64,000 nt of DNA, from the IMG/VR virus record IMGVR_UViG_2721755710_000007, positions 11,410 through 75,409 of that record; one strand, given 5' to 3'. The notes under the pieces were generated by a model. It saw nothing but the letters and a program-made list of their open reading frames with translations, was not told the DNA's origin and did not search any database. Positions 5,803-24,085 of the stretch are shown here, piece after piece. Numbering within the stretch: position 1 is the stretch's first letter; each line of letters begins with the position of its first letter. The position numbers and the translations under genes were made by a program. The DNA is from a virus (lineage: Duplodnaviria; Heunggongvirae; Uroviricota; Caudoviricetes).

Positions 5803-5819
5803 CCATTAACGCGTAAATG

Positions 5820-5836
5820 ATTGCTCTAATTCTTTG
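5820..5836 (+). promoter_or_regulatory. C1 operator-like site
   Basis: ATTGCTCTAATTCTTTG, 13/17, first 11 positions exact. Confidence 0.35.
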
Positions 5837-5852
5837 ATATTTATGGTGACAT

Positions 5853-6164: not shown

Positions 6165-6295
6165 AAAAAAGCCTGGCAAGGAGCCAGGCTGCACAAAAGA
6201 GCGGGTTTGTATTCCGCATCCAATCAATCAAGAAGGAGTATAGCACACAGGTACTGAAGTGAAAAAATGTGATTCGCGATAAATAAACAACTTTA

Positions 6296-6312
6296 ATTGC
6301 TCTAATTGGTTG
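6296..6312 (+). promoter_or_regulatory. C1 operator-like site upstream of ref
   Basis: ATTGCTCTAATTGGTTG, 13/17; ref is C1-repressed in P1. Confidence 0.4.
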
Positions 6313-6379
6313 ATATAATTGAGTCGCAGTTTTTGTCAACTACGAAGACGTTGCCATTACTTCACTCCTTGACATCATA

Positions 6380-6405
6380 GGCGGCCATTAGGCCGCCTTT
6401 TTTTT
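6380..6405 (+). terminator. GC hairpin plus T8 run immediately upstream of the ref start codon
   Basis: GGCGGCC-ATTA-GGCCGCC followed by TTTTTTTT. Confidence 0.4.
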
Positions 6406-6411
6406 GACCAT

Positions 6412-6972
6412 ATGAAAACAATCGAACAAAAAATTGAACAGTGCCGCAAGTGGCAGAAGGCAGCCAGAGAACGAGCGATCGCTCGGCAACGGGAGAAGTT
6501 GGCTGATCCGGTCTGGCGAGAATCTCAATATCAGAAAATGCGGGATACTATCGACCGCCGTATCGCTAAACAGAAAGAACGCCCACTAACCAGCAAAACG
6601 CGGAAAATCGCGGTAAAAATAAAATCTCGTGGCTTGAAGGGACGAACACCGACGGCAGAGGAACGGCGCATAGCCAATGCTCTTGGCGCTCTCCCCTGCA
6701 TTGCCTGCTATATGCATGGAGTAATATCTGAAGAGGTGTCTCTGCACCATATCTCCGGTCGTACCGCGCCTGGTTGTCACAATAAGCAATTGCCCCTTTG
6801 TAGATGGCACCACCAGCATGCAGCACCGGCTGAAGTAAGAGAAAAATACCCCTGGCTGGTCCCTGTTCATGCCGATGGTGTGGTTGGAGGCAAGAAAGAA
6901 TTCACCCTGCTGAACAAGTCAGAGATGGAGTTGCTGGCTGACGCCTATGAGATGGCAAATATCATGCACTAA
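6412..6972 (+). CDS. ref: Ref recombination enhancement function (HNH endonuclease)
   Basis: 186-aa ORF; Cys/His-rich HNH-like core (CIACYMHG...HHISGR...CRWHH); length and position match P1 ref. Confidence 0.8.
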   Translation: MKTIEQKIEQCRKWQKAARERAIARQREKLADPVWRESQYQKMRDTIDRRIAKQKERPLTSKTRKIAVKIKSRGLKGRTPTAEERRIANALGALPCIACYMHGVISEEVSLHHISGRTAPGCHNKQLPLCRWHHQHAAPAEVREKYPWLVPVHADGVVGGKKEFTLLNKSEMELLADAYEMANIMH

Positions 6973-7018
6973 TATATTTATTATTTTTAAAATATTGGGG
7001 CGCGTATGCCCCTGTTTG

Positions 7019-7573
7019 TTAATGTTTTTTGTCCTCTTCCAGACGAGCAACTTTTAATTGTTTGTCCGTGATAGTAAGCAATGCAACCCCTTCTTTTTCG
7101 TACAAATAACCAGCTCCATTAATCAATAATACAAACCGATCCTTTCCTCGGAATACTTCATAATACTTACCAGCACCACAGGTTTTAGTTTCAATGCAGT
7201 CCAAACCAGAGATTGCAGCCTTATCAAAGATATGGTCCTTCGTCGCAACAGGTTTCCCATACTCTTTTGTAAGCATTTCATCTAATTGCATAAAGGTATA
7301 TTTGCCAACTTTTGTTGTCATGCTCAACTCAACCTTGCCATTAATCAACATTCCTGTGGTATGTGGTTCCTGAGCGTCAGGTGACGATTTATCGTATAAT
7401 GCAAAAAGTTCTATGTCTGGAGTCCGTTTTTCAAAAGTGGCTTCGTCCTGTTCTTCAAGATAACTCTTGTCTTCACCGATAAGTGAGAGTTTATCAATCT
7501 CTGACTGGTTACACCCTGTTAACATTAGAGCCATAGCAATAGAAGCGATGATGTTGAAACTACGATTTTTCAT
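7019..7573 (-). CDS. putative lipoprotein
   Basis: 184-aa ORF with signal peptide and lipobox LTGC. Confidence 0.5.
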   Translation of the reverse strand: MKNRSFNIIASIAMALMLTGCNQSEIDKLSLIGEDKSYLEEQDEATFEKRTPDIELFALYDKSSPDAQEPHTTGMLINGKVELSMTTKVGKYTFMQLDEMLTKEYGKPVATKDHIFDKAAISGLDCIETKTCGAGKYYEVFRGKDRFVLLINGAGYLYEKEGVALLTITDKQLKVARLEEDKKH

Positions 7574-7855
7574 TAATCAATCTCCGTGATTTGTGGTCAT
7601 CAAGACCGGACGCAGGAATAGCCCAGACTCTACTACTGCAACCATATAAAAAATAATAGAAATATTGGTTTATAGCATTTTTACAGATAAAAAAATTGAC
7701 ATCTGACAAATTACTTCTGCCAAAATCACATCAAGCCCGGTACGGATGGATCCCTTTTCAAATATTCCATGGACGGCACAGTCTGAGTACCGGGCGCTAC
7801 CTTCAGTTGTATTGCTAAGCCGCCGCTGGTGGCTTTTCTTTTTTGTAGGGGCGCT

Positions 7856-8500
7856 ATGGATAAGAAAATATGCGTTGTTTCGATGAGCGTCGGCAAACCG
7901 GCGTCAATGACTGCTGCATGGATCAACAACGAGCTGATAATGGCTGATCGGACCAGCTACCCTGAACGCCGCCGCGATATGGAACTCCAGCTGCTGCGCG
8001 AATTGCGAGAAAAAGAGGAAAAGGGTTTTATCGTGCTGGTGGAAGAGGAAAACAGCTTTATTACCGGTCGAGTTGGCCAGCGTGTAAGGTTGCGCGATCC
8101 CTTCATGAACGGCAGGCCGGTACTAATTGAAGCAATGCAGATTTACAAGGAGTTGGAACGCCAGAAAGCGATCAAGTTACCGCGCAAGGAATCCGGCAAA
8201 TACATCCTCCACCAAAGCATCTTCGATTCCGAACACGATAAAAAAGGCGATGAGTTTTTCAACATCAACTGGAGCGAGATAACGACAGAGCATGTTCTAA
8301 CGTTGTTATGCTGCTTCGCAACAGAATACAACAACGTGGTAAGCGCAGACTACATCAGGACAATGACAAACACCGTTACTAAACAAGACAACGAATATTC
8401 ACCATATGAGCTATTTGTAAATATGATAAAAGCATTTTATCGGATGGAGCTCGCTAAAGTTCCTCAAGGTAAATTAACAGGTAAGGATAACATCTTTTAA
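7856..8500 (+). CDS. hypothetical protein
   Basis: ORF from ATG at 7856 (MDKKICVV...); no recognised motif. Confidence 0.4.
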   Translation: MDKKICVVSMSVGKPASMTAAWINNELIMADRTSYPERRRDMELQLLRELREKEEKGFIVLVEEENSFITGRVGQRVRLRDPFMNGRPVLIEAMQIYKELERQKAIKLPRKESGKYILHQSIFDSEHDKKGDEFFNINWSEITTEHVLTLLCCFATEYNNVVSADYIRTMTNTVTKQDNEYSPYELFVNMIKAFYRMELAKVPQGKLTGKDNIF

Positions 8501-8553
8501 GCACAGTAATAAGGTGCTTAGATGTTCATATCAATATCCTAACTCTCTGCATC

Positions 8554-9243
8554 TCATAAATCTGATAGCCACTTACTATCTATGGACTCAATCTCCGTCA
8601 GCGGAATTGATGGGAAAAAATATCCCTGAGCGCCCCATAGCCCTATCCCTTTTGATAACTTATGACAATCAATGTTTTCGACGCCTTCAGCGATGATATT
8701 CGGACATAACTTTTTTAAATTGCTAATAATGACATCAAAATGAGGCTTAATCATATGCTCTTGAAAAAATGACTTATCAAGTTTTATTGCATGATATTTA
8801 TTTTTAATTAATGCTTTCATGGTGGCGTTACCACTTCCAAAATCATCAAGCCAAACATTATCTGTCAAAGTCAGTAGAAAGGATATGACGTAATCCTCAT
8901 CGCTTAAATCAGGATAGTTTTCTGATATCTCAATCGCTATAAATTTATTGTTTATTAGTAGTTCTTGAATTTGTTTATTGCCATATATATATAAACAGGT
9001 ATCATAATCTACATTGATAGAGCATAATATATTATGGCATTCAAAAAAACACTTATATTTGATTATTGTGTTAAGTTGAGATTTTAGCAAGTTAATCTTC
9101 ATCTTGCTTGTAAATATACCTAATACTTTCTGAGTAGAAAGAATAGCCCCCTCGTTGGAATAAAATCTGCTCAACACTTCCACTGCTATCAACTTGTTAG
9201 TGCTTGTGGAAATGATTGGTTCTACTATGTAGATAACTTCCAT
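8554..9243 (-). CDS. EAL-domain protein (c-di-GMP phosphodiesterase-like, possibly degenerate)
   Basis: 229 aa with EVLSRF, EISE, DDFGSG, KLDKSF, EGVE, QGY motifs; AT-rich. Confidence 0.6.
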   Translation of the reverse strand: MEVIYIVEPIISTSTNKLIAVEVLSRFYSNEGAILSTQKVLGIFTSKMKINLLKSQLNTIIKYKCFFECHNILCSINVDYDTCLYIYGNKQIQELLINNKFIAIEISENYPDLSDEDYVISFLLTLTDNVWLDDFGSGNATMKALIKNKYHAIKLDKSFFQEHMIKPHFDVIISNLKKLCPNIIAEGVENIDCHKLSKGIGLWGAQGYFFPSIPLTEIESIDSKWLSDL

Positions 9244-9464
9244 GCTCCCACCCTCTATTTTTAAATTGGTTGGCTTTAGCAGATAAAGTGCCCTTTATAT
9301 TTACAGGGGTTACACACTATGTCAATTTATTTATCTGTAGTGAAATTGATAAAAATTCAATAATAAAAGCAGCAACTGTGACACAAATCAATATTTTTAT
9401 TTTTTGCACAACTTCTTGATTTCAGTGCTGCTGTATCTCTATTCTTGTTCAAAGCCTCTTTAGA

Positions 9465-10198
9465 ATGGTGGTAGCTATGTCAGGAGTCTGTTACTTCATC
9501 CTAATAAAGAAACCGATAAATTTTCAATTTCTTAAGGATTTCTTAATATTAAATTATGGTGATGTGCTGTTGCTTAAACATTCTGAACGCGAATTCTTAC
9601 AAACCTATTCAGATAAATATATCGAATTCGAACTTAATGATAGTGCCGTAAGAAACTATTTATCTTGTCACAATCACCAAGGGAAGCAACTTCTGGATAA
9701 ATGCCCACATTTGCTAAAAAAGTCTTTTGCTTATCCTGATTTATTAATCAGGATGATCGATAATATAAGTGACCAGAATCATATACATCCTGATTTTAAG
9801 GATGCTTTAACTTTTTCATTACTTTCAATTTTTAGTGATGTTGACAACCTTAGAGCTTTTCTTAAATCTGGTATGCCTACTTTCTCAGGGAAAGTACGCA
9901 GCATATTTCTTTCAGATGTATCTAAACATTGGAAACTAAGAGACTTAACTGATTATCTATACATAGTGAGAGTTTAATAAAGAAAAAACTCTTATTAGAA
10001 AACACCTCCTTCAGTAAGTTATTACTTGATACACAAATGGCTTTTGCTATTAAATTACTAAAGCAAAACCGCCCCCTCAAACAAGTATCAGAAAGTTGTG
10101 GTTTTAGTAGCATATCGTACTTTGTGTGCCTATTTAGGCAGTATTATAATTGTACACCATGTGAATATGTAAAACATCAGTTATCATCTGGGAAATAA
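9465..10198 (+). pseudogene. AraC-family transcriptional regulator, frameshifted
   Basis: 170-aa N-terminal ORF, then in another frame a C-terminal HTH (LKQVSESCGFSSISYFVCLFRQYYNCTPCEY) ending at 10198. Confidence 0.5.
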
Positions 10199-10236
10199 GA
10201 TGCATTTATCTCCCAGATAATATTGTAATATTAAAC

Positions 10237-10485
10237 TCAGTCAGCATTTAGTAGCAGAGCATTATCTATGATGATCTGCTCCCATTCTTCGAATGCCCGG
10301 TCGCGGACGCCCTGGGGAACGCTGTTTGTTTTGAAATCGACGACCGTCCGCCATTTCCCGTCCGGACGGTACATGCGCAGAGCTTTACTTCCCCCTTCCC
10401 TGCGCACCTCAACGTTATGCTTGTCAGCAAACTCTTGTAATGCTCGTAGCGTCCCATGCTTTACTGTGTAGTATCGCTTTTTCAA
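10237..10485 (-). CDS. hypothetical 82-aa basic protein, third gene of a three-gene operon
   Basis: Start overlaps the stop of the upstream gene by 4 bp; may be a 3'-truncated fragment because an AT-rich junction follows directly. Confidence 0.45.
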   Translation of the reverse strand: MKKRYYTVKHGTLRALQEFADKHNVEVRREGGSKALRMYRPDGKWRTVVDFKTNSVPQGVRDRAFEEWEQIIIDNALLLNAD

Positions 10486-10922
10486 GTTTTCTCTCCAGCC
10501 TGTGCCAAGGCTTCAACTTCCAAATCGTAAGACTCAAACTCATAGTCCTGGTCGTCAACTTCTTCAGGGACTGGCAGTAAATGCCAGGCTGAGTATATCT
10601 GACCATTATCAAAACGCTCCTGGCTGTAGAGCGTCGCGGCTATGAGTGTTAGCGCCGGGCGGTCATAACGGTAAAATTTGCGAACGTCACGGTCAACGAG
10701 ACGACCGAAATTACCATAACCGCGCTCCAGTAATAATTTTTTAATTTCCGGCCAGTATGGGCCATAGCTGCGGTACAGGCGGGGATTTTTCAGTAATCGC
10801 CCGCGTAGCCCTGACAGGAAGAAATCAACGTATTCGTCTTCTGTCTTTCCTAACAACGCTGTACGGAGTACCGCCTCAAGATATGTTTTATTCGGTTTTA
10901 TTGTATCAGATAGTGTGGCCAT
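10482..10922 (-). CDS. hypothetical 146-aa protein, second gene of operon
   Basis: ORF 33 bp downstream of the large gene; no recognised motif. Confidence 0.45.
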   Translation of the reverse strand: MATLSDTIKPNKTYLEAVLRTALLGKTEDEYVDFFLSGLRGRLLKNPRLYRSYGPYWPEIKKLLLERGYGNFGRLVDRDVRKFYRYDRPALTLIAATLYSQERFDNGQIYSAWHLLPVPEEVDDQDYEFESYDLEVEALAQAGEKT

Positions 10923-10955
10923 ATTATGCGACGCCCGGCGAACCGGGCGCTCCTG

Positions 10956-12887
10956 TTATGCGTATTGTTGGATGACGGCCAGAACGTCCGCCACGTTGTG
11001 TTTTGTCTCGATAATCCACCAGTTGCCCGGGAAATCGCTGTTCTTCGCCTTCGCTGGCAGCCAGCGAGCGCCGAATTTTTCCTTGATTGCGTCTTTAGCA
11101 CGGAAAAGAACGCCTTTCATGCCGGACGCCTCCTGAAGCCCAAATACCTCACCAGCGGCGAATTTTGGTGCGTACATCATCTTCAGGTCGGCGGTGGATA
11201 CGCGATAATTCAGACCAAGAGACTGAGCTATGCTGGTGGCATCACCCTGTATTGATGATAACTCTTCTTGTTTCTCGTTTCTGGCGGCAATTTCTTCCTC
11301 CGTGATGTTGCCTAGGGCCAGGTTTATCCGATCAGCGTCGGCCTGTTTCTCTTCATCGGTGCGCCCGGCAAGAACCGTGTTAATTCTCTGCAATATCTCA
11401 ACATGATTCTTGCGCATGCTAAGCAATTCCGGCGTAACCTCGTTAAGGTCCACCAGCCCAAGGATGGCAAGGTCGGAAAACATTGATACCAGGTTGTAGG
11501 TCATGCGATAGCTGAGTTGCCCATAGGCTGATGGCAACTGCACCGCATCCATTTGATAGGCATCCATAAATTTAGAGCCGTCGTTTACGACATCCGCAAT
11601 TGCCGGTGTGATTTTCCCTGTGGTGGCGGCCTCCCTGATTGCTGTTACCCACGATTGAGTCAGCGCGGCGACTGCATGATTCAGATTGGCTTTCCGTTCT
11701 GCTGCAATACGCGCGCTTGCAGCGTCCATTGCCTGCTTGATCTCGTCTTTATTGCTGTAAATGCCAATGGTGCCAAACTGTGCTGTGGTGATCTCATAAT
11801 CTGACGCCCGGAACTCATGGGTACCGAAAATGGCATTGGTGACCTCAAGTTCAGAATCCCCGTTACGAGTAGCCCCCTGGCTTGTTTTCTCCGGCATTCT
11901 GGCGATCGCATCCGCTATTGTCTCCTGAATTGCTTCAGGGGATAGCGTATCTCCGTATGACGCGATTACTTCGCCATAATTGGAGCCAAACAGTTCAGTC
12001 AGGAATACTTCTGCCAAACGGACCTGGCGGTTATTCCCTTCCGACATCATACCAAGCACCCATTTTGCAATTGACGACTTCAGCGCGCCGTCACGGCGAT
12101 CCGGGTAAACCGCATGCTTCAGTGGGTCCGTATAGGTACCAACAAAATCAATGCTATAGCCTGACTCTGTAGTCTGAACGCCGTATGAGTCAGTGATTTT
12201 GATCATGCCGCGCTGCTGGAAACGGTAGAAATCGTCACAGGAAATGATGTCGTTAATCCCGGCGATGGAGACGCCACCACTGATTTTCTGCATAACAGCA
12301 TCTTCATCGGGAGTTACATCCACCTGTTTATCCAGCGTCTTCACATCCCAGTTACCCGATTTGGTGCCTTTGAAGGTAAAGATGATCTCCACGTCTGCGC
12401 GCTGGCTGTCGAAGTCCAGCGACTTAATGCGAACGATATCACCGGCACAATCGTAGTATTGGCCTACACGCCATGAGCGATCGCCGATAACAAGGAACTC
12501 ATTCGCATGGTTAACCAGATCAGGATCAACATCCAGAATGCCTTTATTTATTGCATCCTCCACCAGCGGGCGCAGGCGTTTGATATCCGTCGCGGCCTTC
12601 TGAGTACGGTTCAATAATTTCTCATAGCGGGAGATGGCTTGAGTGATATTAGCCTTGCGCTGAATGGCGCTTTTCAACGACGCGCGATAATGTGCTAACA
12701 ACGTACGGTCTGTGTGATGGACGCTACCCCAGCGGGCCTTCCAGTCTGCATTATCAGCTGCTTTGGCCATTAACTGGAGTGCCATCAGTACCAAGAACAG
12801 GAGCACCTCCCACGCTAATAGACTGGCCCCCTGAATCTCACCGTTCTGAAACCACAACAAAAAAACATCAGGAATAAAAAACACCAC
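10956..12887 (-). CDS. hypothetical large protein (up to 643 aa), first gene of operon; true start probably internal (Met codon at 12785 or 12770)
   Basis: Long ORF; codons 17-23 are encoded by an IS2 IRL remnant so the annotated N-terminus is doubtful; no Walker or methyltransferase motifs seen. Confidence 0.5.
   Translation of the reverse strand: MVFFIPDVFLLWFQNGEIQGASLLAWEVLLFLVLMALQLMAKAADNADWKARWGSVHHTDRTLLAHYRASLKSAIQRKANITQAISRYEKLLNRTQKAATDIKRLRPLVEDAINKGILDVDPDLVNHANEFLVIGDRSWRVGQYYDCAGDIVRIKSLDFDSQRADVEIIFTFKGTKSGNWDVKTLDKQVDVTPDEDAVMQKISGGVSIAGINDIISCDDFYRFQQRGMIKITDSYGVQTTESGYSIDFVGTYTDPLKHAVYPDRRDGALKSSIAKWVLGMMSEGNNRQVRLAEVFLTELFGSNYGEVIASYGDTLSPEAIQETIADAIARMPEKTSQGATRNGDSELEVTNAIFGTHEFRASDYEITTAQFGTIGIYSNKDEIKQAMDAASARIAAERKANLNHAVAALTQSWVTAIREAATTGKITPAIADVVNDGSKFMDAYQMDAVQLPSAYGQLSYRMTYNLVSMFSDLAILGLVDLNEVTPELLSMRKNHVEILQRINTVLAGRTDEEKQADADRINLALGNITEEEIAARNEKQEELSSIQGDATSIAQSLGLNYRVSTADLKMMYAPKFAAGEVFGLQEASGMKGVLFRAKDAIKEKFGARWLPAKAKNSDFPGNWWIIETKHNVADVLAVIQQYA
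12819..12839 (+). mobile_element. 21-bp IS2 left inverted repeat remnant
   Basis: TAGACTGGCCCCCTGAATCTC identical to the IRL of the intact IS2 at 19645; similarity stops after 21 bp. Confidence 0.6.
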
Positions 12888-13385
12888 ACAAACACAGCAC
12901 TGTACCCCCCCTCATAACTGAAAAGCGCCGCCGCCCCCGCCCGAAGGGCGGGAACAACATCGCTTTTAATTATGAATGTTGTAAGTACATTGTCATCGCT
13001 GTCAGTCTTCTGGCTGGAAGTCCTCAGTACACGCTCGTAAGCGGCCCTCACGGCCCGCTAACGCGGAGATACGCCCCGACTTCGGGTAAACCCTCGTCGG
13101 GACCACTCCGACCGCGCATAAAGGCTCTGTCATGGCTGAAAACGGGTATGGCTTAGCAGGGCCGGGGGTGGGTAAGGTGAAATCTATCAGTCAGTACCGG
13201 CTTACGCCGGGCTTCGGCGGTTTTACTCCGGTATCATATGAAACAACAGAGTGCCGCCTTCCATGCCGCTGGCGCGGCATCAGGACAACTGAAGAGTGAC
13301 GGCGCACATTAACATCAAACAGACTTGTTAAGCAGTCTTTCAGGGTGTAATCTGAAGACCTGTTAAATAGTCTCAGAGGTGTGTT

Positions 13386-13637
13386 ATGCCCAGTATCATT
13401 TTGTCTGACACCAGTGCAAGCGTCAGTGAGCTGAAAAAAAATCCGATGGCAACTGTCAGTGCCGGAGAGGGGTATCCTGTTGCCATTCTTAACCGGAATC
13501 AGCCAGCATTCTACTGTGTCCCTGCTGAGCTCTATGAAAGAATGCTTGATGCCTTGGATGACCAGGAGCTGGTAAAACTGGTTACTGAACGCAGCAGTCA
13601 GCCTCTGCATGATGTGGACCTGGACAGTTATTTATGA
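13386..13637 (+). CDS. stbD: StbD/RelB-like antitoxin
   Basis: 83-aa ORF overlapping the toxin start by 4 bp. Confidence 0.75.
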   Translation: MPSIILSDTSASVSELKKNPMATVSAGEGYPVAILNRNQPAFYCVPAELYERMLDALDDQELVKLVTERSSQPLHDVDLDSYL

Positions 13638-13921
13638 CTTATACAGTAAAATTCCGGGATGATGCACTGAAAGAATGGCTCAGACTGGACAAGACCATTC
13701 AGCAGCAGTTCGCAAAAAAACTGAAAAAATGCAGTGAAAATCCTCATATAGCTTCTGCAAAACTACGTGGATTAAAGGACTGCTATAAAATCAAACTTCG
13801 CGCATCAGGTTTTCGTCTGGTTTATCAGGTTATTGATGATATGTTAATTATTGCGGTCGTCGCAGTAGGTAAACGTGAACGCAGCAACGTTTATCATCTC
13901 GCCAGTGAACGGATGAAATAA
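13634..13921 (+). CDS. stbE: RelE/StbE-family toxin (mRNA interferase)
   Basis: 95 aa; ...LRGLKDCYKIKLRASGFRLVYQVIDD...VGKRERSNVY closely resembles recalled E. coli RelE. Confidence 0.8.
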   Translation: MTYTVKFRDDALKEWLRLDKTIQQQFAKKLKKCSENPHIASAKLRGLKDCYKIKLRASGFRLVYQVIDDMLIIAVVAVGKRERSNVYHLASERMK

Positions 13922-14780
13922 TATCCTGGTCAGCACTCTTTCTTACCTGCTTCCATTTTTTCAGTGATTCTTTTCCTGCATGCAGAAAAAAAGCCTACCC
14001 TGTGGGCAGGCATAACAGACAATCGCACAGTCAGTGTTGAAATTAATGATGTCACGCATTATACCCGGTGGATACACAAACCATCCCTGCAAATGCATTG
14101 GCATCCTAATCAACGTCTGAAACAACTGCAATGGCCGGATCTGTGATTTCAGAGAAAGTTATTATGTTTATTGAATATAACCGAAGTGATAAATAAAAGT
14201 ATTATCACCTTTAATATTTATGCTTATTGCGTGGTTTTATCTGGTTATATAAAGCACAGATGTTCTTATTATTTTCTGAAAAATAACCATATGGATCGAT
14301 TTCCCCCACCCAGCCGAAGCGGTTCGGCTCGTTCGGCGTGTCGTCGACACTGAAGCGCTTATCCATTTCGTTCCAGCGGTAAGAGTTGTCGCTGTCGCTG
14401 ACGAATGCCATCGGGTCGCTAAACAGCGTGATCCGCCATGCGATCAAAAAGCGTAAGTGTTTCCGACAGACGAGCCGGTGAAAAAAGTGGTGTGTCTGGC
14501 AATACAGGCATCGTCCCCGAAATGGACGATGCCGTTGAAGGACTGGGGTATGGCAATAAGCCGCTTTATTATCGGATTCAGTGACCGCCTGGACGGTTAC
14601 TTTTGAGAAAAGGCATTTACACACAATCCTAAACAGACTCCTATATTTCAGATTTTGTTATCAACGCATTTCAAATCTCTTAGAAATCATTACTGTCGTC
14701 ATATTTTCCGAGGCAGCTCACCACCTAACTATGTTTTATCAACAATATTTTGTGAAGGATATTTATAATGTAAAGACACA

Positions 14781-17700
14781 TCAGAAACGATATTCCACAC
14801 TCAACATGGCAGATGTATTATGGTATCCATGTTCTCCAAGTTGAATGCCTGCATCAGCCCGGAATGCTACTTCTGGTGTTATCATTCCCACAACACCACC
14901 ATTTATTTCTCCGATATCACGCGCACCATCCTGGTATATACTTACACCATTCATACTGGTGCCGAAAACACGACTATTGTGCAACCAGTGTGCCTCCACA
15001 AATGGTCTGAACGGAACCGCATACCGCGTATTTTTACCGTTTTTGCTGGTAAGCCATGTTCTTGCTCCCAGGCGGGTGAGAATATTTCCGTTACCGGTAT
15101 TTTCAATACTGGTTCCGTTACTTTCATGATATTTGTCTGATTTTACATTCATCCGGACAACCTGAAGCTGCGGCTGAACATACCATTCATGACTTCCCTT
15201 GTAATTGTCGGTAAACTCTCCAGCCTTCCATGAATATCCTGCTTCCAGAGATACCGTAAACCCTTTTGACTTCCATGACTCAGCAGGCAGCCGTTCTCCA
15301 TTTATATGATTATCAAACCAGCTGTATTGCAGCCAGCTATCAAGATAAGAACCATTGTGTGTTTCATCATTGGCATACCATGTTGCATAAAGACCCGCTG
15401 TGTATCCATTCATTCTTCCTTCCGAATGGTATCCGGTGCTCAGGGCATTCGTACTGTTATTATTATGACCATAGCCAGCCATCATACCTGTATGCCAGCG
15501 ATCGGTACCATTCAGGCTCCACTGAGCTATATCTCCCCCTATTAACACAACGTAGCTATTCCCCCGGGTTCTCAGCTGACTACTGTTGTCACGCCAGCGA
15601 TTATGTTTTCCTTTATTATACATCCAGATACCTGCTTCATTTTCTTCTCCTGTCATGTGGCTGATATACAACTCCTGTCCCTGTCGTTCATACAGATTCG
15701 TTACAAACAGATTATTTGCAGCAGCAATACTGGCAACATAGCTACCTGCCTCAGGACGCAAATTATTATCATGGTTTTCCGGTACAGCTTCAGGTTGTGG
15801 TACAGGAATGTCTTTTCTGCTAATCAGATACCAGTTAGTGCTGTTAATCCCCTGACCACGTTTCAGTATGTAATCATAAGCTCCGGCTGTAATACGTTCC
15901 GTCTGAATGAATTCAGCATTATCAGCATTGCCACTGACGTGAATCACTTCAATCCCATTAAGTGTCTCTGCACCAGTACCACCGGCCTGAGTAACAGCGA
16001 CACGGGTACGGCCACTGGCATTACCTTTAATCACCAGACGATCTGTTTTCGAATTGTCACCACCTGTTTCTGTCTGGAGGAGAATAAGTCCATTTCTGCC
16101 AGTGTAATTCCCTCCGACAGTCAGTATATTACCCGGCATATATGTAGTGAGATCGACTATACCACTATTGCTCAGATTTCCTGCAACGCCCCCAAACCCG
16201 GAGAGTTTGCCCTGCTCTTCAACAATGACCTGGTTACTGCCGAGCATCACCGGTGAATCTGCGTTCCCCAGTATCACTGTCCCCTGAATAATATCTGTCA
16301 TCCCGGTCCATTTTGCGTTATCGCTAATGTTCAGTGCACCTGCTCCCGTCTTGCGAACATTACCATAACCACTGATATTGTTGGTAAGCTGCCATGCTGA
16401 TGTACTGTTCAGAGTTAATGTGCCATAGTTATCAACAAAGGCTGTCCCCAGATTATCAGCCGTGGATACAGCCAAATGAGCCCCCTTATTCACGGTAAAA
16501 ACACCGGAAAAATTACGATTATTACCCGTTATATCAAGCATTCCCCCATTTATGTTCAGAGAACCATCCCCTGCAATAGTACCTGCAGATTCTCCTCCAT
16601 TATTCAGTATCAGGCTTCCGCCATGAATGTTCAGCACAGAGCCTGCAGCCGTCAGTAGTTTGCTTATTGTCTGAGGATACCCATTCATATCCAGTTCTGC
16701 GCCACGGGATAAATATAAATACTCAGTCCGACCAAGAGCATCAGGTGCAGCAAGAATTAATACGCCAGATTTAACCTCTGTATTTCCTGTATAATTGTTT
16801 GTTGCAGAAAGTATAAGAGTACCATTACCTGATTTTGTCAGACTTTTGCCGTCCCAGCCATCATATAATAAAGGTGAAAGATTATCGGAAAGAGAAACAC
16901 CTATGTTCAGAGTGGCATCTTTTTCTATATTAAAGGTTCCATATCCCATGCCTTTTGTATTATTCCATCTCAGCATGGAGATCAGTTTGTTATCGTCGTC
17001 ATTTAAAGACGTATAAACATAACTTTCAGCACCTTCTGTCAGTAATACATTGTATTGTACAATGTGACTATTATCAGCGATCGAGATACCTGTGTCTGAC
17101 GACAATAATGTGTAATAGTCCTGAGTCCAGTTCTTAATTGATGTGTCTATATTAAGCCATGAATCACTTTTTAATGTAATAGTATTTGCGTGAACATTAG
17201 CATTTCCTACAGACAGGTTCATAGATGCGTCTTCATCAATACTTATATTTCCGTTAAAAATGGAGTTCTTGCCTGACAGATAAACAGATGAGCCATTCCC
17301 AATCATTAGCCCACCATTAATTGCTGTTGCGTTATTGATGTTTTTAATAATTAATTCATTTGTACCATTAACAGGTATACTAGCTAGTTTAATATCACCA
17401 TTAATCACAGAATCTGAATAAATATCTAATGAATTATACCCGCCAGAAAAAATTATTGATGTATTATAAGCATCTTTTTGGCTATTATATAATCCTGAAA
17501 GATTACCATGATTATTAATATGGATATCTTCTCCATAAACAGAGCAACCACCGTCGGGGCCATATCCCCCCTGAACAATACCGTTATTATTCAAAGTGAT
17601 TTGATTTCCAGAAATAGCATCTCCCCCTTGTTTTATTCCATATCCTCCAGATATCATGTTGTCGTTAGTAATGAAAAGATTACTACCATTAATACCATCA

Positions 17701-18278
17701 CCACCGTTTACGCCATTACCGCCCAATATTCCTCCGGAATTATGCACTGTAATATTGCTACCGGTTACACCGGAACCACCTGTCCCACCTACATCATCAC
17801 CTCCGTATATACTTCTGTAATTATCAACTATAATATCATCCCCGCTTAACCCTGCACCTCCGCTACTTCCTGAGCCACCAAGACCATTACCCCCATATAC
17901 ATTTCTGTAATTGTTTATAGATATTTTGTTGCCACTAACAGCAATTCCACCATTATATCCATCTCCTCCCCAAACACTACCATTATTATTTAGCGTAAAG
18001 TTTTCACCGTAGACACCTGCACCACCGATTGATGTATTGCTTGTTCCTCCTTTGATGTTAATACTGCTTTCAACAGATAGTATATTTTGAGTATAACTTG
18101 TTTTATACGGCACGCTGATATTAAGCGCCGCGTTTCCATCAACACCTGTAATACTCCTGGTTATACTTTTAGGTATACCATTACCATTCAGTTGTATTGT
18201 TTGCGCACCAGAAAAATGAGACTGCACAGAATAAATTATACTGACCAGAAATTGTAAAATTCGTATATTCTTATTCAT
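14781..18278 (-). CDS. autotransporter adhesin (AIDA-I/TibA/Ag43-like)
   Basis: 1165 aa; signal peptide, glycine-rich ~19-aa passenger repeats, C-terminal beta-barrel ending ...SVEYRF; AT-rich. Confidence 0.75.
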   Translation of the reverse strand: MNKNIRILQFLVSIIYSVQSHFSGAQTIQLNGNGIPKSITRSITGVDGNAALNISVPYKTSYTQNILSVESSINIKGGTSNTSIGGAGVYGENFTLNNNGSVWGGDGYNGGIAVSGNKISINNYRNVYGGNGLGGSGSSGGAGLSGDDIIVDNYRSIYGGDDVGGTGGSGVTGSNITVHNSGGILGGNGVNGGDGINGSNLFITNDNMISGGYGIKQGGDAISGNQITLNNNGIVQGGYGPDGGCSVYGEDIHINNHGNLSGLYNSQKDAYNTSIIFSGGYNSLDIYSDSVINGDIKLASIPVNGTNELIIKNINNATAINGGLMIGNGSSVYLSGKNSIFNGNISIDEDASMNLSVGNANVHANTITLKSDSWLNIDTSIKNWTQDYYTLLSSDTGISIADNSHIVQYNVLLTEGAESYVYTSLNDDDNKLISMLRWNNTKGMGYGTFNIEKDATLNIGVSLSDNLSPLLYDGWDGKSLTKSGNGTLILSATNNYTGNTEVKSGVLILAAPDALGRTEYLYLSRGAELDMNGYPQTISKLLTAAGSVLNIHGGSLILNNGGESAGTIAGDGSLNINGGMLDITGNNRNFSGVFTVNKGAHLAVSTADNLGTAFVDNYGTLTLNSTSAWQLTNNISGYGNVRKTGAGALNISDNAKWTGMTDIIQGTVILGNADSPVMLGSNQVIVEEQGKLSGFGGVAGNLSNSGIVDLTTYMPGNILTVGGNYTGRNGLILLQTETGGDNSKTDRLVIKGNASGRTRVAVTQAGGTGAETLNGIEVIHVSGNADNAEFIQTERITAGAYDYILKRGQGINSTNWYLISRKDIPVPQPEAVPENHDNNLRPEAGSYVASIAAANNLFVTNLYERQGQELYISHMTGEENEAGIWMYNKGKHNRWRDNSSQLRTRGNSYVVLIGGDIAQWSLNGTDRWHTGMMAGYGHNNNSTNALSTGYHSEGRMNGYTAGLYATWYANDETHNGSYLDSWLQYSWFDNHINGERLPAESWKSKGFTVSLEAGYSWKAGEFTDNYKGSHEWYVQPQLQVVRMNVKSDKYHESNGTSIENTGNGNILTRLGARTWLTSKNGKNTRYAVPFRPFVEAHWLHNSRVFGTSMNGVSIYQDGARDIGEINGGVVGMITPEVAFRADAGIQLGEHGYHNTSAMLSVEYRF

Positions 18279-18325
18279 ACTGTTTTTTCTTTAGTGATGC
18301 ATTTTTTATCAACCTGGATTTGCCC

Positions 18326-19231
18326 CTATATTTCCAGACACCTGTTATCACTTAACCCATTACTGGCTTGCTGCCGTAGATATTCCCGTGGCGAGCGATA
18401 ACCCAGTGCACTATGCGGATGCCATTCGTTATAATGCTCGAATGCCTCTGCAAGGTTCTTTGCTGCCGTTAACCCGTCTGGTTTGGGCATGACACTGATG
18501 TAGTCACGCTTTATCGTTTTCACGAAGCTCTCTGCTATGCCGTTACTCTCCGGACTCCGCACCGCCGTGTTCTTCGGTTCAAGCCCCAACATCCGGGCAA
18601 ACTGCCGTGTTTCATTAGCCCGGTAGCATGAACCATTATCCGTCAGCCACTCTACTGGAGACGCCGGAAGCTCGTTGCCGAAACGGCGTTCCACCGCTCC
18701 CAGCATGACGTCCTGTACTGTTTCACTGTTGAAGCCGCCCGTAGTGACCGCCCAGTGCAGTGCCTCACGGTCACAGCAGTCCAGCGCGAACGTGACTCGC
18801 AGTTTTTCTCCGTTATCACAGCGGAACTCGAACCCGTCAGAGCACCATCGCTGATTACTTTCTTTCACAGCCACTCTGCCGGTATGTGCCCGTTTCGATG
18901 GCGGTACAGCGGGTTTTCGCTCAAGCAACAGCGCATTCTGGCGCATGATCCGGTAAATACGTTTGGCATTGATCGCAGGCATACCATCAAGTTCGGCCTG
19001 TCTGCGAAGCAGCGCCCATACCCGACGATAACCATACGTGGGCAGCTCTCCGATAACATGGTGTATACGGAGAAGCACATCCGTATCATCTGAGTGACGG
19101 CTGCGGCGACCATCTTTCCAGTCATCGGTTCGTCTGAGAATTACGTGCAACTGCGCACGCGACACCCGGAGACAACGGCTGACTAAGCTTACTCCCCATC
19201 CCCGGGCAATAAGGGCGCGTGCGCTATCCAC
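18326..19231 (-). CDS. insD: IS2 OrfB transposase
   Basis: 301-aa IS3-family integrase-core ORF. Confidence 0.9.
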
Positions 19232-19554
19232 TTTTTTGCACGCCCGTATTCAACGGCTTCTTTAAGGAGTTCATTTTCCATCGTTTTTTTGCCGAGCAGG
19301 CGCTGGAGTTCTTTAATCTGCTTCATGGCAGCAGCAAGTTCAGAGGCAGGAACGACCTGCTCTCCTGCGGCCACAGCAGTAAGACTTCCCTCCTGGTATT
19401 GCTTGCGCCAGAGAAATAACTGGCTGGCTGCCACACCGTGTTGCCGGGCAACAAGGGAGACCGTCATTCCCGGTTCAAAACTCTGCTGAACAATAGCGAT
19501 CTTTTCCTGTGTAGTACGCCGTCTGCGTTTCTCCGGTCCTAAGACATCAATCAT
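19189..19554 (-). CDS. insC: IS2 OrfA
   Basis: Starts [24 protein letters not shown]; overlaps OrfB as in IS3-family frameshift arrangement. Confidence 0.85.
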
Positions 19555-19759
19555 CTGCTCTCCAATGACTAGTCTAAAAACTAGTATTAAGACTATCACT
19601 TATTTAAGTGATATTGGTTGTCTGGAGATTCAGGGGGCCAGTCTAATTTATTATAGAGTATATATATGTACTGCGTTTAAATCATGAAGACGACAACCTG
19701 TTTTACATAAATTATTCCTAAGTATTTTTCCAGAGAAGACCTAGGTATAATGATGTGCA

Positions 19760-20527
19760 GGTAATGACTCCAACTTATTGATAGTGTTTTATGTTCAGAT
19801 AATGCCCGATGACTTTGTCATGCAGCTCCACCGATTTTGAGAACGACAGCGACTTCCGTCCCAGCCGTGCCAGGTGCTGCCTCAGATTCAGGTTATGCCG
19901 CTCAATTCGCTGCGTATATCGCTTGCTGATTACGTGCAGCTTTCCCTTCAGGCGGGATTCATACAGCGGCCAGCCATCCGTCATCCATATCACCACGTCA
20001 AAGGGTGACAGCAGGCTCATAAGACGCCCCAGCGTCGCCATAGTGCGTTCACCGAATACGTGCGCAACAACCGTCTTCCGGAGACTGTCATACGCGTAAA
20101 ACAGCCAGCGCTGGCGCGATTTAGCCCCGACATAGCCCCACTGTTCGTCCATTTCCGCGCAGACGATGACGTCACTGCCCGGCTGTATGCGCGAGGTTAC
20201 CGACTGCGGCCTGAGTTTTTTAAGTGACGTAAAATCGTGTTGAGGCCAACGCCCATAATGCGGGCAGTTGCCCGGCATCCAACGCCATTCATGGCCATAT
20301 CAATGATTTTCTGGTGCGTACCGGGTTGAGAAGCGGTGTAAGTGAACTGCAGTTGCCATGTTTTACGGCAGTGAGAGCAGAGATAGCGCTGATGTCCGGC
20401 GGTGCTTTTGCCGTTACGCACCACCCCGTCAGTAGCTGAACAGGAGGGACAGCTGATAGAAACAGAAGCCACTGGAGCACCTCAAAAACACCATCATACA
20501 CTAAATCAGTAAGTTGGCAGCATCACC
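19760..20527 (-). mobile_element. IS1 copy 2
   Basis: 768 bp identical in ORF content to copy 1 (insB 19775-20278, insA 20197-20472); no 9-bp duplication. Confidence 0.95.
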
Positions 20528-20563
20528 CTTAAGAAGATCGCCCTGAAATTCATCAAATAATCC

Positions 20564-21286
20564 TTAGCGGCGTTTACCAGACAGTTCCGCAGCAATATAA
20601 GCCTGCACGCTTTTGTACTGTTTTACCTTTTCGATAAACTCATCGGGACTGTAAGCACCTTTTACACGACGGGATACGTTAAGTGTTTTCTTAACCCGTT
20701 CGATATACATGTTGAGACTTCGAATAATATTGTGCGCCATTACGTTGTAATCGCTAACCGGTAATTGACCCAGAGAGTTGAATTTGTACATCTGGGTCAG
20801 AAGGTTGTTCATTTCAAAGATGTGCTTATAAAAACGCATTGTATTTTGATTGTTGAAGTTTAACTGGACCGATTCAAATCGGAACGGAGAAAACTCAGTT
20901 GATGAGAAGAATGGATCACTTTCATCAACGTGAATAGTGGCGATATGATGTTCCAGATTCTCCTTCATTAAATTATTTTCGTCGTGCAATTCATTAAACC
21001 AGTCCTGAATTGCCTGCACCAATTCGGGGTGCCTTACCGCATTAACCGTCCTGAATAATGATGAAATAGCAATACTTACATCATCAAAGCCTCTAATTAC
21101 GGAACGATTCCGAGCCGTAAGGAAACGGTTAAAATCGGGAGTACCTGGCTTAATGGTTACTGTGGCCATGCCGTAAAGTTCATTTTTACTTTGCACGACT
21201 TTTCGGGTATTGTCAGATGCCTGAGAGGTGCGGGCATTTACATCAGGAGTTTTCTGCTCGGTTTCATTTATTGATACGTCGGTCAT
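20564..21286 (-). CDS. hypothetical 240-aa protein, second gene of two-gene operon
   Basis: ORF; start overlaps upstream gene stop by 4 bp; no recognised motif. Confidence 0.5.
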   Translation of the reverse strand: MTDVSINETEQKTPDVNARTSQASDNTRKVVQSKNELYGMATVTIKPGTPDFNRFLTARNRSVIRGFDDVSIAISSLFRTVNAVRHPELVQAIQDWFNELHDENNLMKENLEHHIATIHVDESDPFFSSTEFSPFRFESVQLNFNNQNTMRFYKHIFEMNNLLTQMYKFNSLGQLPVSDYNVMAHNIIRSLNMYIERVKKTLNVSRRVKGAYSPDEFIEKVKQYKSVQAYIAAELSGKRR

Positions 21287-21768
21287 TGTGCCACCTCATA
21301 TTTTGAGTATTTACGGATTTTCCGTCCCAGTTTGATATATGCAGCATGATAGAATTCAAGTAATTCTCTGTAGGGTTCCAGTAATCCCTCCGTTTTTTCG
21401 ATCATTTCATATTCCCAAGACGCGTGATTAACAAAGCAGCTTTTTGAATATTTTCCGTTTTTCATCGCAGAAACCCGTTTCGACATATAGCTGGGTGCCC
21501 TGGTTTTAAACGGACTGAACTTATGCCAGGTGATAGTGACTTTTTTCGCATTACCAATTAATTCTAGTTTCGGTGCATACGAACCCAGATACTCACGTTT
21601 TAGTGTATTGCTAGGCCGGGGTAAATTAATCTCCAGATGATTCCGTTCTTTCCACTCGATCCAGTAATTTGTACACAAGTCTTCAGCCTCCTCCCGCAGA
21701 GCCTCGATTTGTGAACGCATTAAGCTGCGCGATAATTCAAGTGACTTTATTAGTTTCGAATTAGACAT
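21283..21768 (-). CDS. hypothetical 161-aa protein, first gene of two-gene operon
   Basis: ORF; lysine-rich; no recognised motif. Confidence 0.5.
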   Translation of the reverse strand: MSNSKLIKSLELSRSLMRSQIEALREEAEDLCTNYWIEWKERNHLEINLPRPSNTLKREYLGSYAPKLELIGNAKKVTITWHKFSPFKTRAPSYMSKRVSAMKNGKYSKSCFVNHASWEYEMIEKTEGLLEPYRELLEFYHAAYIKLGRKIRKYSKYEVAQ

Positions 21769-22035
21769 GTGACCTCCTGATGTGAAATCACTATACCGAA
21801 GTGGTTTTTATTTTTTTTCACAAACAGGACTTTTTTCAGTGATTTTTTTCTGAGAATTATGAGGGGCGTGTCGTTGGTGCGATGCATACCGATAGTGAAT
21901 AACACCAGATGAGCTCGGGAACGGCATAGCGGGGTGTACTTATGTTCGGCAGAAAAGTAGCTTTTTCTGCAATGGGTATTCCTGATCCGGTGATTTGAAA
22001 AGTGCTGTTTTACTTACTAAGTTATACATATATCT

Positions 22036-22197
22036 AGTGCCACTTTTTAATCAAAAGTGACCCTAGGTTTTTTGCGCATAGTGCCACTTTTTAAAAAAGT
22101 GACCCTATGTCCTGTCTACATAGGGTCACTTTTCACAAAGAAGTGACCCTATGTCGAGGCTCCATAGGGCCACTTTTCAGCAAAAAGTGACCCTATG
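22036..22197. repeat. array of eight copies of a ~14-bp motif (AAAAGTGACCCTATG) in alternating orientation
   Basis: Copies at 22036, 22054, 22080, 22097, 22121, 22141, 22163, 22185 forming four or more inverted-repeat pairs. Confidence 0.8.
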
Positions 22198-22780
22198 TAA
22201 TAGCCATTGTTAATCAATCGGAAAAATATTCATGCTAGCTCGCTCTTATCGCTAAGGTTATTGCTGCTTTCTGCCGATAACAGTGCAAGTTTTGCGATTT
22301 TTTTAAGCGCTTCACAGTTCGTTAGCAAGCTCAGTTTTTTTTGATAAAATTCTGGTCAGTTTGTTTAAAAAGTGTTACAAGTAAGGCGAATGGTTGAATG
22401 GTTAGTTTTAAGACTCAAATCGGCAGTATTAAAATTCCAAAAGTAGCTTTTCATACTTCAAAAAACCAAACTTTAATTTCATGTAGAAGAGTTGTACTAT
22501 TGTATTGACTCAAGGACAATCCGACATGTCAGAATCAGATAACATAACGCGTAACTATTACGTACCGAGGTTTCGATTATTCGTAGTTACCGTGCATTCC
22601 TAATGTTATTGCCTATCCATGATCTTCTTCGTATCAATCAGGGTCTCCACTCTTGCAACGCCGTCTATTTGGAGACGGATTTGGGACAATGACTGATAAT
22701 GCATTTGAAGTTGAAACTCGTCCGGGAAGTTTCCTCGTTCCACGTTCTTTAGGCAAAGAGATTTCCTGGGATAATTTTTT

Positions 22781-23311
22781 ATGGCTGTTGTCGATGGTGA
22801 CACTAACGTTATTCGAGAATATGACAGTGACGATGCTGACTTCGGTATTTACAATGCTGGGGAAAAAGTTACTTTACTGTGTGGCCGGGAAGACTTTTAT
22901 AATCCGACAAAAATTCAGCAGTTACGCTCTAAGTGTGTAGATATACAAAATGATTACTTTATTCAAATCTTCTTTATGTCAATGCTTGCACCTGAGTTTG
23001 TCAGCATATTTTTTGGATTAAAGCCTGCCACCGCAGATGCAATAAAAGATGTTGGCGTTTCATCACTTAAAGCAATTAACGATGTTGTTCTCTTTCCGCG
23101 AACAATTGCCTTTACGCCAGGACTGGGGGATGATAGCACTACGTTAAAATCTAAAGTATTCGCCAGGGCATACGAATTATCTGCCGACATTCGTTTGGGT
23201 AAAGTTAGTGATGACTTAATGGAACTACTGCGTTACGACACTATGTTTACGTGTCACCGTCAGGATGTGTTTAACTCATTAGCAAATAAAGTGCTCTTGA
23301 AGGATTATTGA
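22781..23311 (+). CDS. hypothetical acidic 176-aa protein
   Basis: ORF only; stops 7 bp before IS1 copy 3. Confidence 0.3.
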   Translation: MAVVDGDTNVIREYDSDDADFGIYNAGEKVTLLCGREDFYNPTKIQQLRSKCVDIQNDYFIQIFFMSMLAPEFVSIFFGLKPATADAIKDVGVSSLKAINDVVLFPRTIAFTPGLGDDSTTLKSKVFARAYELSADIRLGKVSDDLMELLRYDTMFTCHRQDVFNSLANKVLLKDY

Positions 23312-23317
23312 ATATGG

Positions 23318-24085
23318 GGTAATGACTCCAACTTATTGATAGTGTTTTATGTTCAGATAATGCCCGATGACTTTGTCATGCAGCTCCACCGATTTTGAGA
23401 ACGACAGCGACTTCCGTCCCAGCCGTGCCAGGTGCTGCCTCAGATTCAGGTTATGCCGCTCAATTCGCTGCGTATATCGCTTGCTGATTACGTGCAGCTT
23501 TCCCTTCAGGCGGGATTCATACAGCGGCCAGCCATCCGTCATCCATATCACCACGTCAAAGGGTGACAGCAGGCTCATAAGACGCCCCAGCGTCGCCATA
23601 GTGCGTTCACCGAATACGTGCGCAACAACCGTCTTCCGGAGACTGTCATACGCGTAAAACAGCCAGCGCTGGCGCGATTTAGCCCCGACATAGCCCCACT
23701 GTTCGTCCATTTCCGCGCAGACGATGACGTCACTGCCCGGCTGTATGCGCGAGGTTACCGACTGCGGCCTGAGTTTTTTAAGTGACGTAAAATCGTGTTG
23801 AGGCCAACGCCCATAATGCGGGCAGTTGCCCGGCATCCAACGCCATTCATGGCCATATCAATGATTTTCTGGTGCGTACCGGGTTGAGAAGCGGTGTAAG
23901 TGAACTGCAGTTGCCATGTTTTACGGCAGTGAGAGCAGAGATAGCGCTGATGTCCGGCGGTGCTTTTGCCGTTACGCACCACCCCGTCAGTAGCTGAACA
24001 GGAGGGACAGCTGATAGAAACAGAAGCCACTGGAGCACCTCAAAAACACCATCATACACTAAATCAGTAAGTTGGCAGCATCACC
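23318..24085 (-). mobile_element. IS1 copy 3
   Basis: 768 bp; insB 23333-23836, insA 23755-24030; same orientation as copy 2; no duplication. Confidence 0.95.

Follow-up and report, generated by a model that had tools for sequence, protein, structure and literature searches.

A bank of eight alternating 15-bp sites in a P1-like phage-plasmid as the probable recognition core of an IncHI-type transfer origin

Introduction

What is the function of eight copies of a short repeat that alternate in orientation within 166 bp of a phage-plasmid? The DNA analysed here, referred to as the window, comprises 64,000 nucleotides of the IMG/VR virus record IMGVR_UViG_2721755710_000007 (positions 11,410 to 75,409) and belongs to a P1/P7-like phage-plasmid. 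The repeats are located in an intergenic region upstream of a gene for a 161-aa protein. An earlier note, made from the letters of the sequence alone, had proposed that they constitute a binding platform for several protein dimers, i.e. an operator bank, a centromere-like site or a set of iterons. We propose that the array forms the core by which proteins recognise an origin of transfer (oriT) of the IncHI type, of the MobI-dependent MOBH1 kind, and that it would be a platform on which bound MobI/TraH recruits the relaxase TraI. From the sequence comparisons and the analogy with related elements described below, we estimate the probability that this is correct at about three in four.

Results

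Anatomy of the array

Direct reading and a repeat finder locate eight 15-bp sites in alternating orientation between positions 22033 and 22198. The array and its elements are:

22033..22198, no strand: array of 166 bp, proposed core of an IncHI-type oriT (repeats, R27 homology, site conservation in a four-lineage alignment)
22033-22047, minus strand: site 1, variant GGCAC
22053-22067, plus strand: site 2, variant GACCC
22077-22091, minus strand: site 3, variant GGCAC
22095-22109, plus strand: site 4, variant GACCC
22119-22133, minus strand: site 5, variant GACCC
22139-22153, plus strand: site 6, variant GACCC
22163-22177, minus strand: site 7, variant GGCCC
22183-22197, plus strand: site 8, variant GACCC
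22095..22133, no strand: central perfect palindrome formed by sites 4 and 5, 15-bp arms, 9-bp spacer

When all sites are oriented alike they read AAAAGTG[A/G]C[C/A]CTATG, with AAAAGTGACCCTATG as the consensus. The eight alternating inverted repeats described in the earlier note are present as claimed, and its count of copies and its spacers of 3-9 bp are correct, but the repeat unit that it quoted has 15 nucleotides, not 14, and the description has to be amended in that three sequence variants (GGCAC, GGCCC and GACCC) exist among the eight copies. Successive sites are separated by 5, 9, 3, 9, 5, 9 and 5 bp, corresponding to centre-to-centre distances of 20, 24, 18, 24, 20, 24 and 20 bp. The idea that these distances approach multiples of a helical turn thus holds for the spacings of 18-20 bp, which are close to whole turns, but not for the constant spacing of 24 bp.

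The array can be described as four tandem units of ~44 bp, each made up of one inverted pair, with a unit period of 44, 42 and 44 bp. Tandem Repeats Finder (TRF) reports positions 22077-22198 as a repeat of period 44 with 2.8 copies and 85% matches. For the palindrome composed of sites 4 and 5 the repeat finder gives arms of 16 nt that are 100% complementary; the 15-bp arms do not vary among the four plasmid lineages compared below, unlike the spacer between them. The core AAGTGRCMCTA, when allowed at most one mismatch, occurs eight times in the 64-kb window, each time inside the array. Since shuffled sequence also produces such matches (a mean of 2.9, scattered across the 64 kb), it is the clustering within 166 bp that is non-random. 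The GC content is 38.0% for the intergenic region and 42.2% for the array compared to 46.7% for the whole window, so that the AT-richness and the multiple inverted repeats expected of a MobI-dependent oriT are both found here.

The array lies in the region that holds the IncHI oriT

By the genes on either side, the locus can be recognised as the oriT region of a transfer module of the IncHI type (MOBH11), a remnant of Tra1 from a conjugative plasmid:

21283..21768, minus strand: mobI/traH, 161 aa, intact (Pfam PF19456 MobI, E=1.4e-20)
20564..21286, minus strand: intact 240-aa open reading frame (ORF240) of the R0121 family, in second position in the H operon
20528..20553, minus strand: traI, MobH-family relaxase gene, first 26 nt only (ATG at 20553-20551), the rest removed by insertion sequence IS1
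22526..23311, plus strand: trhR pseudogene (three-frame translation against R27 TrhR and gapped blastn alignment)

The gene order is alike in the IncHI1 plasmids pHCM1 and R27, the IncHI1B plasmid pN330-1 and the IncHI2 plasmid pC309-VIM4. In all of these, traD/traG ← traI(MobH) ← orf240 ← mobI is followed, after an intergenic region of ~757 bp, by trhR → trhY → trhF → trhH → trhG. The intergenic region of the window is 85% identical to positions 108372-109166 of R27 over 797 columns and all eight sites are shared. It is this traH-trhR intergenic region of R27 that Lawley et al. reportedly cloned in 2002 (J Bacteriol 184:2173) and found to be mobilised by R27. Our designation of the R27 intergenic region as oriT is based on that work and on two other publications (PMC10838148, PMC13635750). 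In R27, traH corresponds to R0122, a relaxosome protein encoded by the H operon, orf240 is R0121, and the divergently transcribed trhR is R0123 of the R operon (PMC7366339). TraH is the MobI-like factor of R27 (PMC13635750), and a mobI-like gene directly adjoins oriT in both R27 and SXT (PMC10838148). With the same locus and the same flanking genes as R27, the array therefore lies within the region that holds the IncHI oriT. It is placed in non-coding DNA 265-430 bp 5′ of the MobI-family gene.

The motif is restricted to this place. In the complete sequence of R27 (180,461 bp, assembled from four loci) the core occurs exactly eight times, always between 108417 and 108577, at the place homologous to the array. 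When one mismatch is permitted the eight array sites are joined by three isolated one-mismatch matches at 95025, 126555 and 128455, and none of these three precedes the F, AC or Z operons. A cognate MobH-family relaxase is missing from the window, where 26 nt of traI are left, and the module is therefore not autonomous. This bears on its function in the present host element but not on the identity of the DNA site.

The sites are selectively conserved and co-vary with the MobI lineage

We aligned the intergenic regions of the window and of the IncHI1B, IncHI1 and IncHI2 plasmids. Invariant columns make up 91% of the sites (109/120) compared to only 27% of the spacers (12/45) and 51% of the remaining intergenic DNA (306/597), with a Fisher p of about 1e-15 for sites versus spacers. 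The copy-specific variants are also kept in the four lineages, notably GGCAC in copies 1 and 3, and the 9-bp loops of the head-to-head pairs vary. In accordance, when a 301-bp query was compared to Escherichia coli genomes by megablast, the IncHI2 plasmids aligned only at query positions 70-229, which is the array. The earlier note had suggested a search of the motif across related plasmids, and this search recovers the array at the homologous locus of IncHI1, IncHI1B and IncHI2 plasmids.

More distant mobI loci were collected by tblastn on plasmids, by a scan of genome contigs (12 loci) and from contigs encoding ORF240 homologues; a word-based protein search for MobI yielded close relatives only. 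These diverged loci carry an array of alternating sites in the same position relative to mobI, roughly -280 to -445 as counted from its ATG. Across lineages the 5′ half of the site (AAAAGTNAC) is retained, while the 3′ half varies with the MobI lineage. It is CCTATG where MobI is 100%, 82% and 76% identical to the window protein (the window itself, R27 TraH and the IncHI2 protein, respectively), TCTATG where the identity falls to 58-59% (site AAAAGTSACTCTATG) and ACTGTG at 53% (site AAAAGTTACACTGTG). In a Klebsiella record of the virulence-plasmid type, with a MobI of 42% identity, the site is AAAAAGTACTAATG. A Vibrio lineage (MobI 32%) does not have a trhR neighbour and presents eight direct repeats with the core CGGCACCGAAC upstream of mobI.

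Some of these distant loci can be described further. Positions 3100-4200 of NZ_CP064209.1 (K. pneumoniae pJX11-1, IncFIB/IncHI1B) contain an analogous remnant bounded by insertion sequences on a hypervirulence-type plasmid typed as 'non-mobilizable'; it comprises mobI (42%), an ORF240 homologue and upstream alternating CATTAGTACTTTT / AAAAAGTACTAATG sites, without a relaxase. V. cholerae pW7G (4456-4948) and V. hepatarius have eight or nine direct repeats whose core, TCGGCACCGAAC, is itself partly palindromic. The Vibrio repeats are spaced by 55/88/55/87/55/75 bp and reach to within ~50 bp of the mobI start.

Flanking genes and expression signals

The 161-aa protein carries the RefSeq name 'conjugative transfer protein MobI(A/C)'. 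An AlphaFold (AF2) model of moderate confidence (predicted local distance difference test score, pLDDT, of 67) predicts two long helices (residues 3-43 and 117-160) and a central sheet. No significant fold match to this model was found in the PDB, and neither MobI nor ORF240 could be linked at the sequence level to a solved structure.

The relaxase gene is full length in R27 and pHCM1, and NZ_LR883966.1, which is near-identical to the window, has a partial mobH. Sister plasmids retain 355-438 codons of traI, and erosion of the fragment is therefore progressive. On the other side of the array, trhR begins with its start codon at 22526 but has suffered a 13-bp deletion after codon 10 and at least two further frameshifts. 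What had been described as a 176-aa ORF (22781-23311; 'hypothetical protein' in RefSeq sister records) represents the C-terminal two thirds of TrhR. The location of the array between the divergent 161/240-aa operon and the 176-aa ORF had thus been given correctly, with the qualification that this ORF is the remnant of a frameshifted trhR. The fragment does not contain trhY or genes for the coupling protein, TraJ and any of the pilus components.

A putative promoter of trhR is predicted solely from its match to the consensus:

22322..22350, plus strand: predicted sigma-70 promoter for trhR, TTAGCA-17-TAAAAT with TG

Both of its hexamers are invariant in the four-lineage alignment. The predicted promoter is followed by a block, TTAAAAAGTGTTACAAGTAAGG (within 22322-22381), which is near-invariant in the four IncHI lineages, with one C in pN330-1, and may be an operator or leader element. 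No sigma-70 promoter at consensus level was found for mobI on the minus strand, and a search for RNA families over the region returned only sub-threshold hairpin matches to miRNA models.

The IS1-bounded fragment and its host

P1-like DNA, 95-98% identical to P1, P7 and their relatives, extends over positions 1-12772 of the window and resumes from 24100 on. The segment in question, 20528-23317 (2,790 bp), is the remnant of the Tra1 region and is enclosed by two IS1 elements; a third copy is located elsewhere in the window:

19760..20527, minus strand: IS1, bounding the fragment on the traI side (terminal repeats and length)
23318..24085, minus strand: IS1, trhR-side boundary of the fragment, followed by P1-like DNA
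2351-3118, strand not stated: third IS1, identical to the other two

No differences exist among the three IS1 copies, which might suggest a composite IS1 transposon, but no target duplication was found around 19760-24085. The segment is therefore considered an IS1-eroded remnant, produced by IS1-mediated rearrangement or deletion, and not a clean insertion or composite transposon. Nor does the array consist of terminal repeats of an insertion sequence or transposon, which the earlier note had named as the finding that would speak against its own proposal. The IS1 ends at 19760/20527 and 23318/24085 have a different sequence and lie away from the array, which sits inside a conserved intergenic region between conjugation genes and not at the ends of a transposase-encoding unit.

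The array region has no match in 50,697 phage records, which speaks against an origin from P1 or another phage. The observation that it resembles none of the known P1 sites is correct for the simple reason that its DNA is not P1 DNA, similarity to P1/P7 being confined to the two portions of the window given above. Among plasmids, the region matches 1,445 records. The identity is ≥99% in 161 of them, which are E. coli plasmids with sizes of about 84-240 kb, and 80-90% in 1,257, which are large conjugative plasmids from Escherichia, Salmonella, Enterobacter and Klebsiella. Of 5,426 complete E. coli genomes, 496 contain the region, and in 10 places the match is chromosomal. The identity is ≥99% in 146 of these E. 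coli records and the cassette as a whole is near-identical in them. No annotated feature lies under the array match in the 30 records listed from this genome collection.

The DNA adjoining the fragment (~12773-19760) is likewise an accessory region unrelated to P1. It encodes toxin-antitoxin systems of the RelE/ParE and Phd/YefM families (according to the annotation of sister records), a 1,165-aa autotransporter ORF (14781-18278) and an IS3-family element, a combination that is found again in several P1-like plasmids of E. coli and E. fergusonii.

A second palindrome flanks the array

A palindrome that is separate from the array is present once on each side of it:

21953..21965, no strand: palindrome AAAAGTAGCTTTT, about 185-195 bp upstream of mobI
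22439..22451, no strand: palindrome AAAAGTAGCTTTT, second copy, about 75-80 bp upstream of the trhR start

This flanking 13-bp palindrome, AAAAGTWACTTTT, is distinct from the array repeat and shares its AAAAGT core. All MobI lineages have it in unchanged form at about -195 relative to mobI and about -80 relative to trhR. In R27 we counted 27 exact and 23 one-mismatch copies (e.g. at 108335, 108820, 38319, 48736 and 64083), compared to 0-1 in shuffled sequence. About half of the exact R27 sites are situated 60-300 bp upstream of start codons, as read from the annotation tables. The palindrome is found upstream of the H, R and AC operons and not upstream of the F or Z operons, and it is therefore not simply the TrhR/TrhY box. 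It has the appearance of an operator at which a so far undescribed regulator would act across the plasmid, and ORF240 would be a candidate for its binder. R27 also contains iteron-like copies of AAAAGGCACTTTT at 38881, 38924 and 38967 whose core resembles the motifs of both the array and the palindrome.

Discussion

A model for the array

The presumed binder of the sites, MobI/TraH, is suggested by its homology to MobI of IncC plasmids. In the IncA/C oriT, inverted and direct repeats make up an AT-rich array of ~150 bp that directly precedes mobI (PMC5587640). IncC MobI, the only one for which binding at oriT has been demonstrated by chromatin immunoprecipitation with exonuclease treatment (ChIP-exo), produces a single major peak at oriT/mobI, self-associates into dimers and multimers and recruits TraI via its C-terminal domain (PMC13635750). 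The layout of the modelled window MobI matches that described for the IncC protein. By analogy, dimers or higher multimers of MobI/TraH would occupy the eight sites as four inverted pairs with a period of ~44 bp. The tail-to-tail members of a pair being about two helical turns apart and the units recurring every 44 bp, a regular nucleoprotein platform could form. Bound MobI would then recruit the MobH-family relaxase TraI to a nearby nic site, and TraI would nick one strand and pilot it through the IncHI type IV secretion system. By eye, an IncP-like nic consensus (ATCCTG) has only partial, non-conserved matches; one of the candidates, TCCTGTC in the loop that separates site 4 from site 5, is not kept in IncHI1 or IncHI2.

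Any activity in the phage-plasmid would have to involve a helper. With the relaxase deleted, trhR dead, and trhY and the pilus genes absent, the array cannot act alone; its function could only be one in cis, giving a co-resident IncHI1 or IncHI2 plasmid a handle by which to mobilise the phage-plasmid. Since the IncHI1 and IncHI2 sites share the window consensus, cross-recognition appears plausible. TrhR and TrhY are required for transcription of the H operon (PMC7366339), and mobI in the window may therefore be silent without a helper.

A number of observations nevertheless weigh against this model. TraI, ORF240 and TrhR diverge together with MobI, and hence the co-variation between sites and MobI lineage does not single out MobI. 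ORF240, with its predicted AcaB-like fold of a DNA-binding regulator, is an equally local candidate binder. A distance of ~265 bp separates the array from the mobI start, in contrast to IncC, where oriT directly adjoins mobI. The conserved GGCAC variant in copies 1 and 3 might reflect two different binders. The C-terminal domain of the MOBH11 relaxase differs from the MobI-binding domain of MOBH12 (PMC13635750), and because of this difference the recruitment step may not be the same in MOBH11. In addition, the predicted structures are of moderate confidence only (pLDDT 66-67), and a full-text literature search with the motif strings returned nothing but unrelated primers.

Alternative explanations

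The possibility that the sites are bound not by MobI but by the 240-aa protein, which would either control transcription of the divergent H and R operons or be another accessory protein of the relaxosome, deserves consideration but is in our opinion unlikely. The AcaB-like fold is a prediction of the structural model, with no similarity to AcaB at the sequence level. Furthermore, oriT recognition in IncC, SXT and islands of the MGIVchHai6 type needs MobI and takes place without an adjacent AcaB-like gene (PMC13635750, PMC7449626), and the invariant plasmid-wide palindrome would be at least as good a target for a regulator as the array. A regulatory role without any direct part in DNA processing could also be imagined if the array were an operator bank for TrhR/TrhY, or their antagonist HtdA, at the promoter of the H/R operons. 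TrhR and TrhY do activate the H operon, whose promoter must fall in the intergenic region of the array (PMC7366339), and trhR is the divergent neighbour. We nevertheless regard this as very improbable: the motif is missing from the rest of R27, including the regions upstream of the TrhR/TrhY-activated F, AC and Z operons, the Vibrio lineage has its array upstream of mobI without a trhR neighbour, and in the window the eight sites are intact even though trhR is a pseudogene and trhY is gone.

Inverted repeats may also act as hairpins in the transferred single strand rather than as duplex sites. Such hairpins could be recognised by the relaxase, mark the point of termination, or provide the recipient with a single-strand promoter or a signal for priming. 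Indeed, the two strands of 22015-22215 fold with -39.6 and -49.9 kcal/mol (z = -8.1 and -10.9 compared to shuffles), and the central pair is a perfect palindrome of 15/16 bp in all lineages. However, strong folding is automatic for any array of inverted repeats. Pairs 1-2 and 3-4 contain two mismatches (GGCAC versus GACCC) that are conserved in four lineages, with no compensatory changes seen, which argues that it is the sequence of the copies that is conserved and not the pairing; the Vibrio lineage has direct repeats instead. Hairpin formation, although partly compatible with recognition by MobI, is thus improbable as the primary function. Hardly any credence is due to a set of replication iterons or a partition centromere. 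This suggestion of the earlier note could draw on the regularly spaced multi-copy array and on AAAAGGCACTTTT of R27, an element with a vaguely similar core of which three copies, spaced by 43 bp, lie between trhA and a RepB-family rep gene (39480-40355). Against it, the array has neither a rep nor a par gene next to it in the window or at homologous loci (for rep, the flanks of 12 such loci were inspected), the strictly alternating orientation is unlike that of iterons, and R27 has its parAB and parM loci and three rep genes elsewhere, with the par genes at 18-25 kb and the array at 108 kb. In the window, the P1 par and rep regions are separate DNA and the IS1-bounded segment has no par gene. 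What remains of the original proposal is a platform made up of several inverted sites, here found to be conserved, of a type to which dimers or multimers bind; the functions as operator bank, centromere or iteron set do not fit.

Implications

If the array is indeed a MobI-dependent oriT core, a P1-type phage-plasmid may have gained a second route of horizontal transfer through a relaxase-less oriT-mobI cassette, hitching on the conjugation of IncHI1 or IncHI2 plasmids besides spreading as a virion. As an alternative, the array could serve as a decoy and, by titrating TraH/TraI, reduce the fertility of an IncHI plasmid in the same cell. Linked to these ideas is the possibility that the AcaB-like ORF240 and AAAAGTWACTTTT make up an IncHI regulon that has not been described. 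We offer this combination of ideas tentatively and consider it rather doubtful as a whole. The cassette may also be only a relic generated by IS1. An active remnant would mean that IncHI helpers can mobilise many plasmids, P1-like and other, of E. coli that are now regarded as 'non-mobilisable'.

Resistance to multiple drugs and to colistin has major carriers in the IncHI1 and IncHI2 plasmids. The origin of transfer of these plasmids has been mapped only to the intergenic region, with no nic site or protein-DNA map defined for MOBH1. The eight 15-bp sites, with a variable half that tracks the MobI lineage, provide a concrete target which should ease footprinting, specificity-swap experiments and inhibitor design. 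Considering its presence in 496 of 5,426 genomes and the lack of annotation in the records listed, the array would also improve the detection of oriT.

Comparison with known systems

The kind of element and locus is already known and the anatomy is that expected of a MobI-type oriT. The eight-site architecture, its co-variation with the lineage and the AcaB-like R0121 appear to be undescribed in the literature that was searched, which did not include the 2002 paper on the R27 oriT.

The functional model comes from the oriT-mobI loci of IncA/IncC plasmids and SXT/R391 elements (MOBH12), where MobI binds oriT and recruits the relaxase and where nic is unmapped (PMC5587640, PMC13635750). The IncC oriT is unrelated to the window array at the DNA level; it abuts the 5′ end of mobI and overlaps the mobI promoters. 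It is built of 14-bp direct repeats and several different inverted repeats, in contrast to the single 15-bp site used eight times with a 44-bp period in the window. The genetic constellation is similar to that of islands of the MGIVchHai6 type, which have their own oriT and mobI but no relaxase or type IV secretion system and need TraI and the pilus of a helper (PMC7449626, PMC13635750). These islands, however, are integrative and their mobilisation has been shown experimentally, whereas the carrier in the window is a P1-like phage-plasmid that is known from its sequence and would depend on an IncHI helper.

P1-derived plasmids with acquired oriT or relaxase genes have been reported by Pfeifer and Rocha in 2024 (PMC10879196) and likewise combine a P1-like backbone with conjugation DNA derived from plasmids; that study reports the category and not the present module or the architecture of its sites. 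The near-identical NZ_LR883966.1 (IncY) is typed by MOB-suite as 'mobilizable, MOBH', while the window does not have even that fragment of the relaxase gene. The closest counterpart is the R27 oriT region. The window copy differs from it by belonging to a distinct lineage, with diverged spacers and a diverged stretch at 21850-21950, and by being detached from traI, traG, traJ, trhY and both Tra regions and flanked by IS1 in a P1-like phage-plasmid. Yet it occupies the homologous locus, has the same flanks in the same order, and possesses eight sites with the same variants in the same succession.
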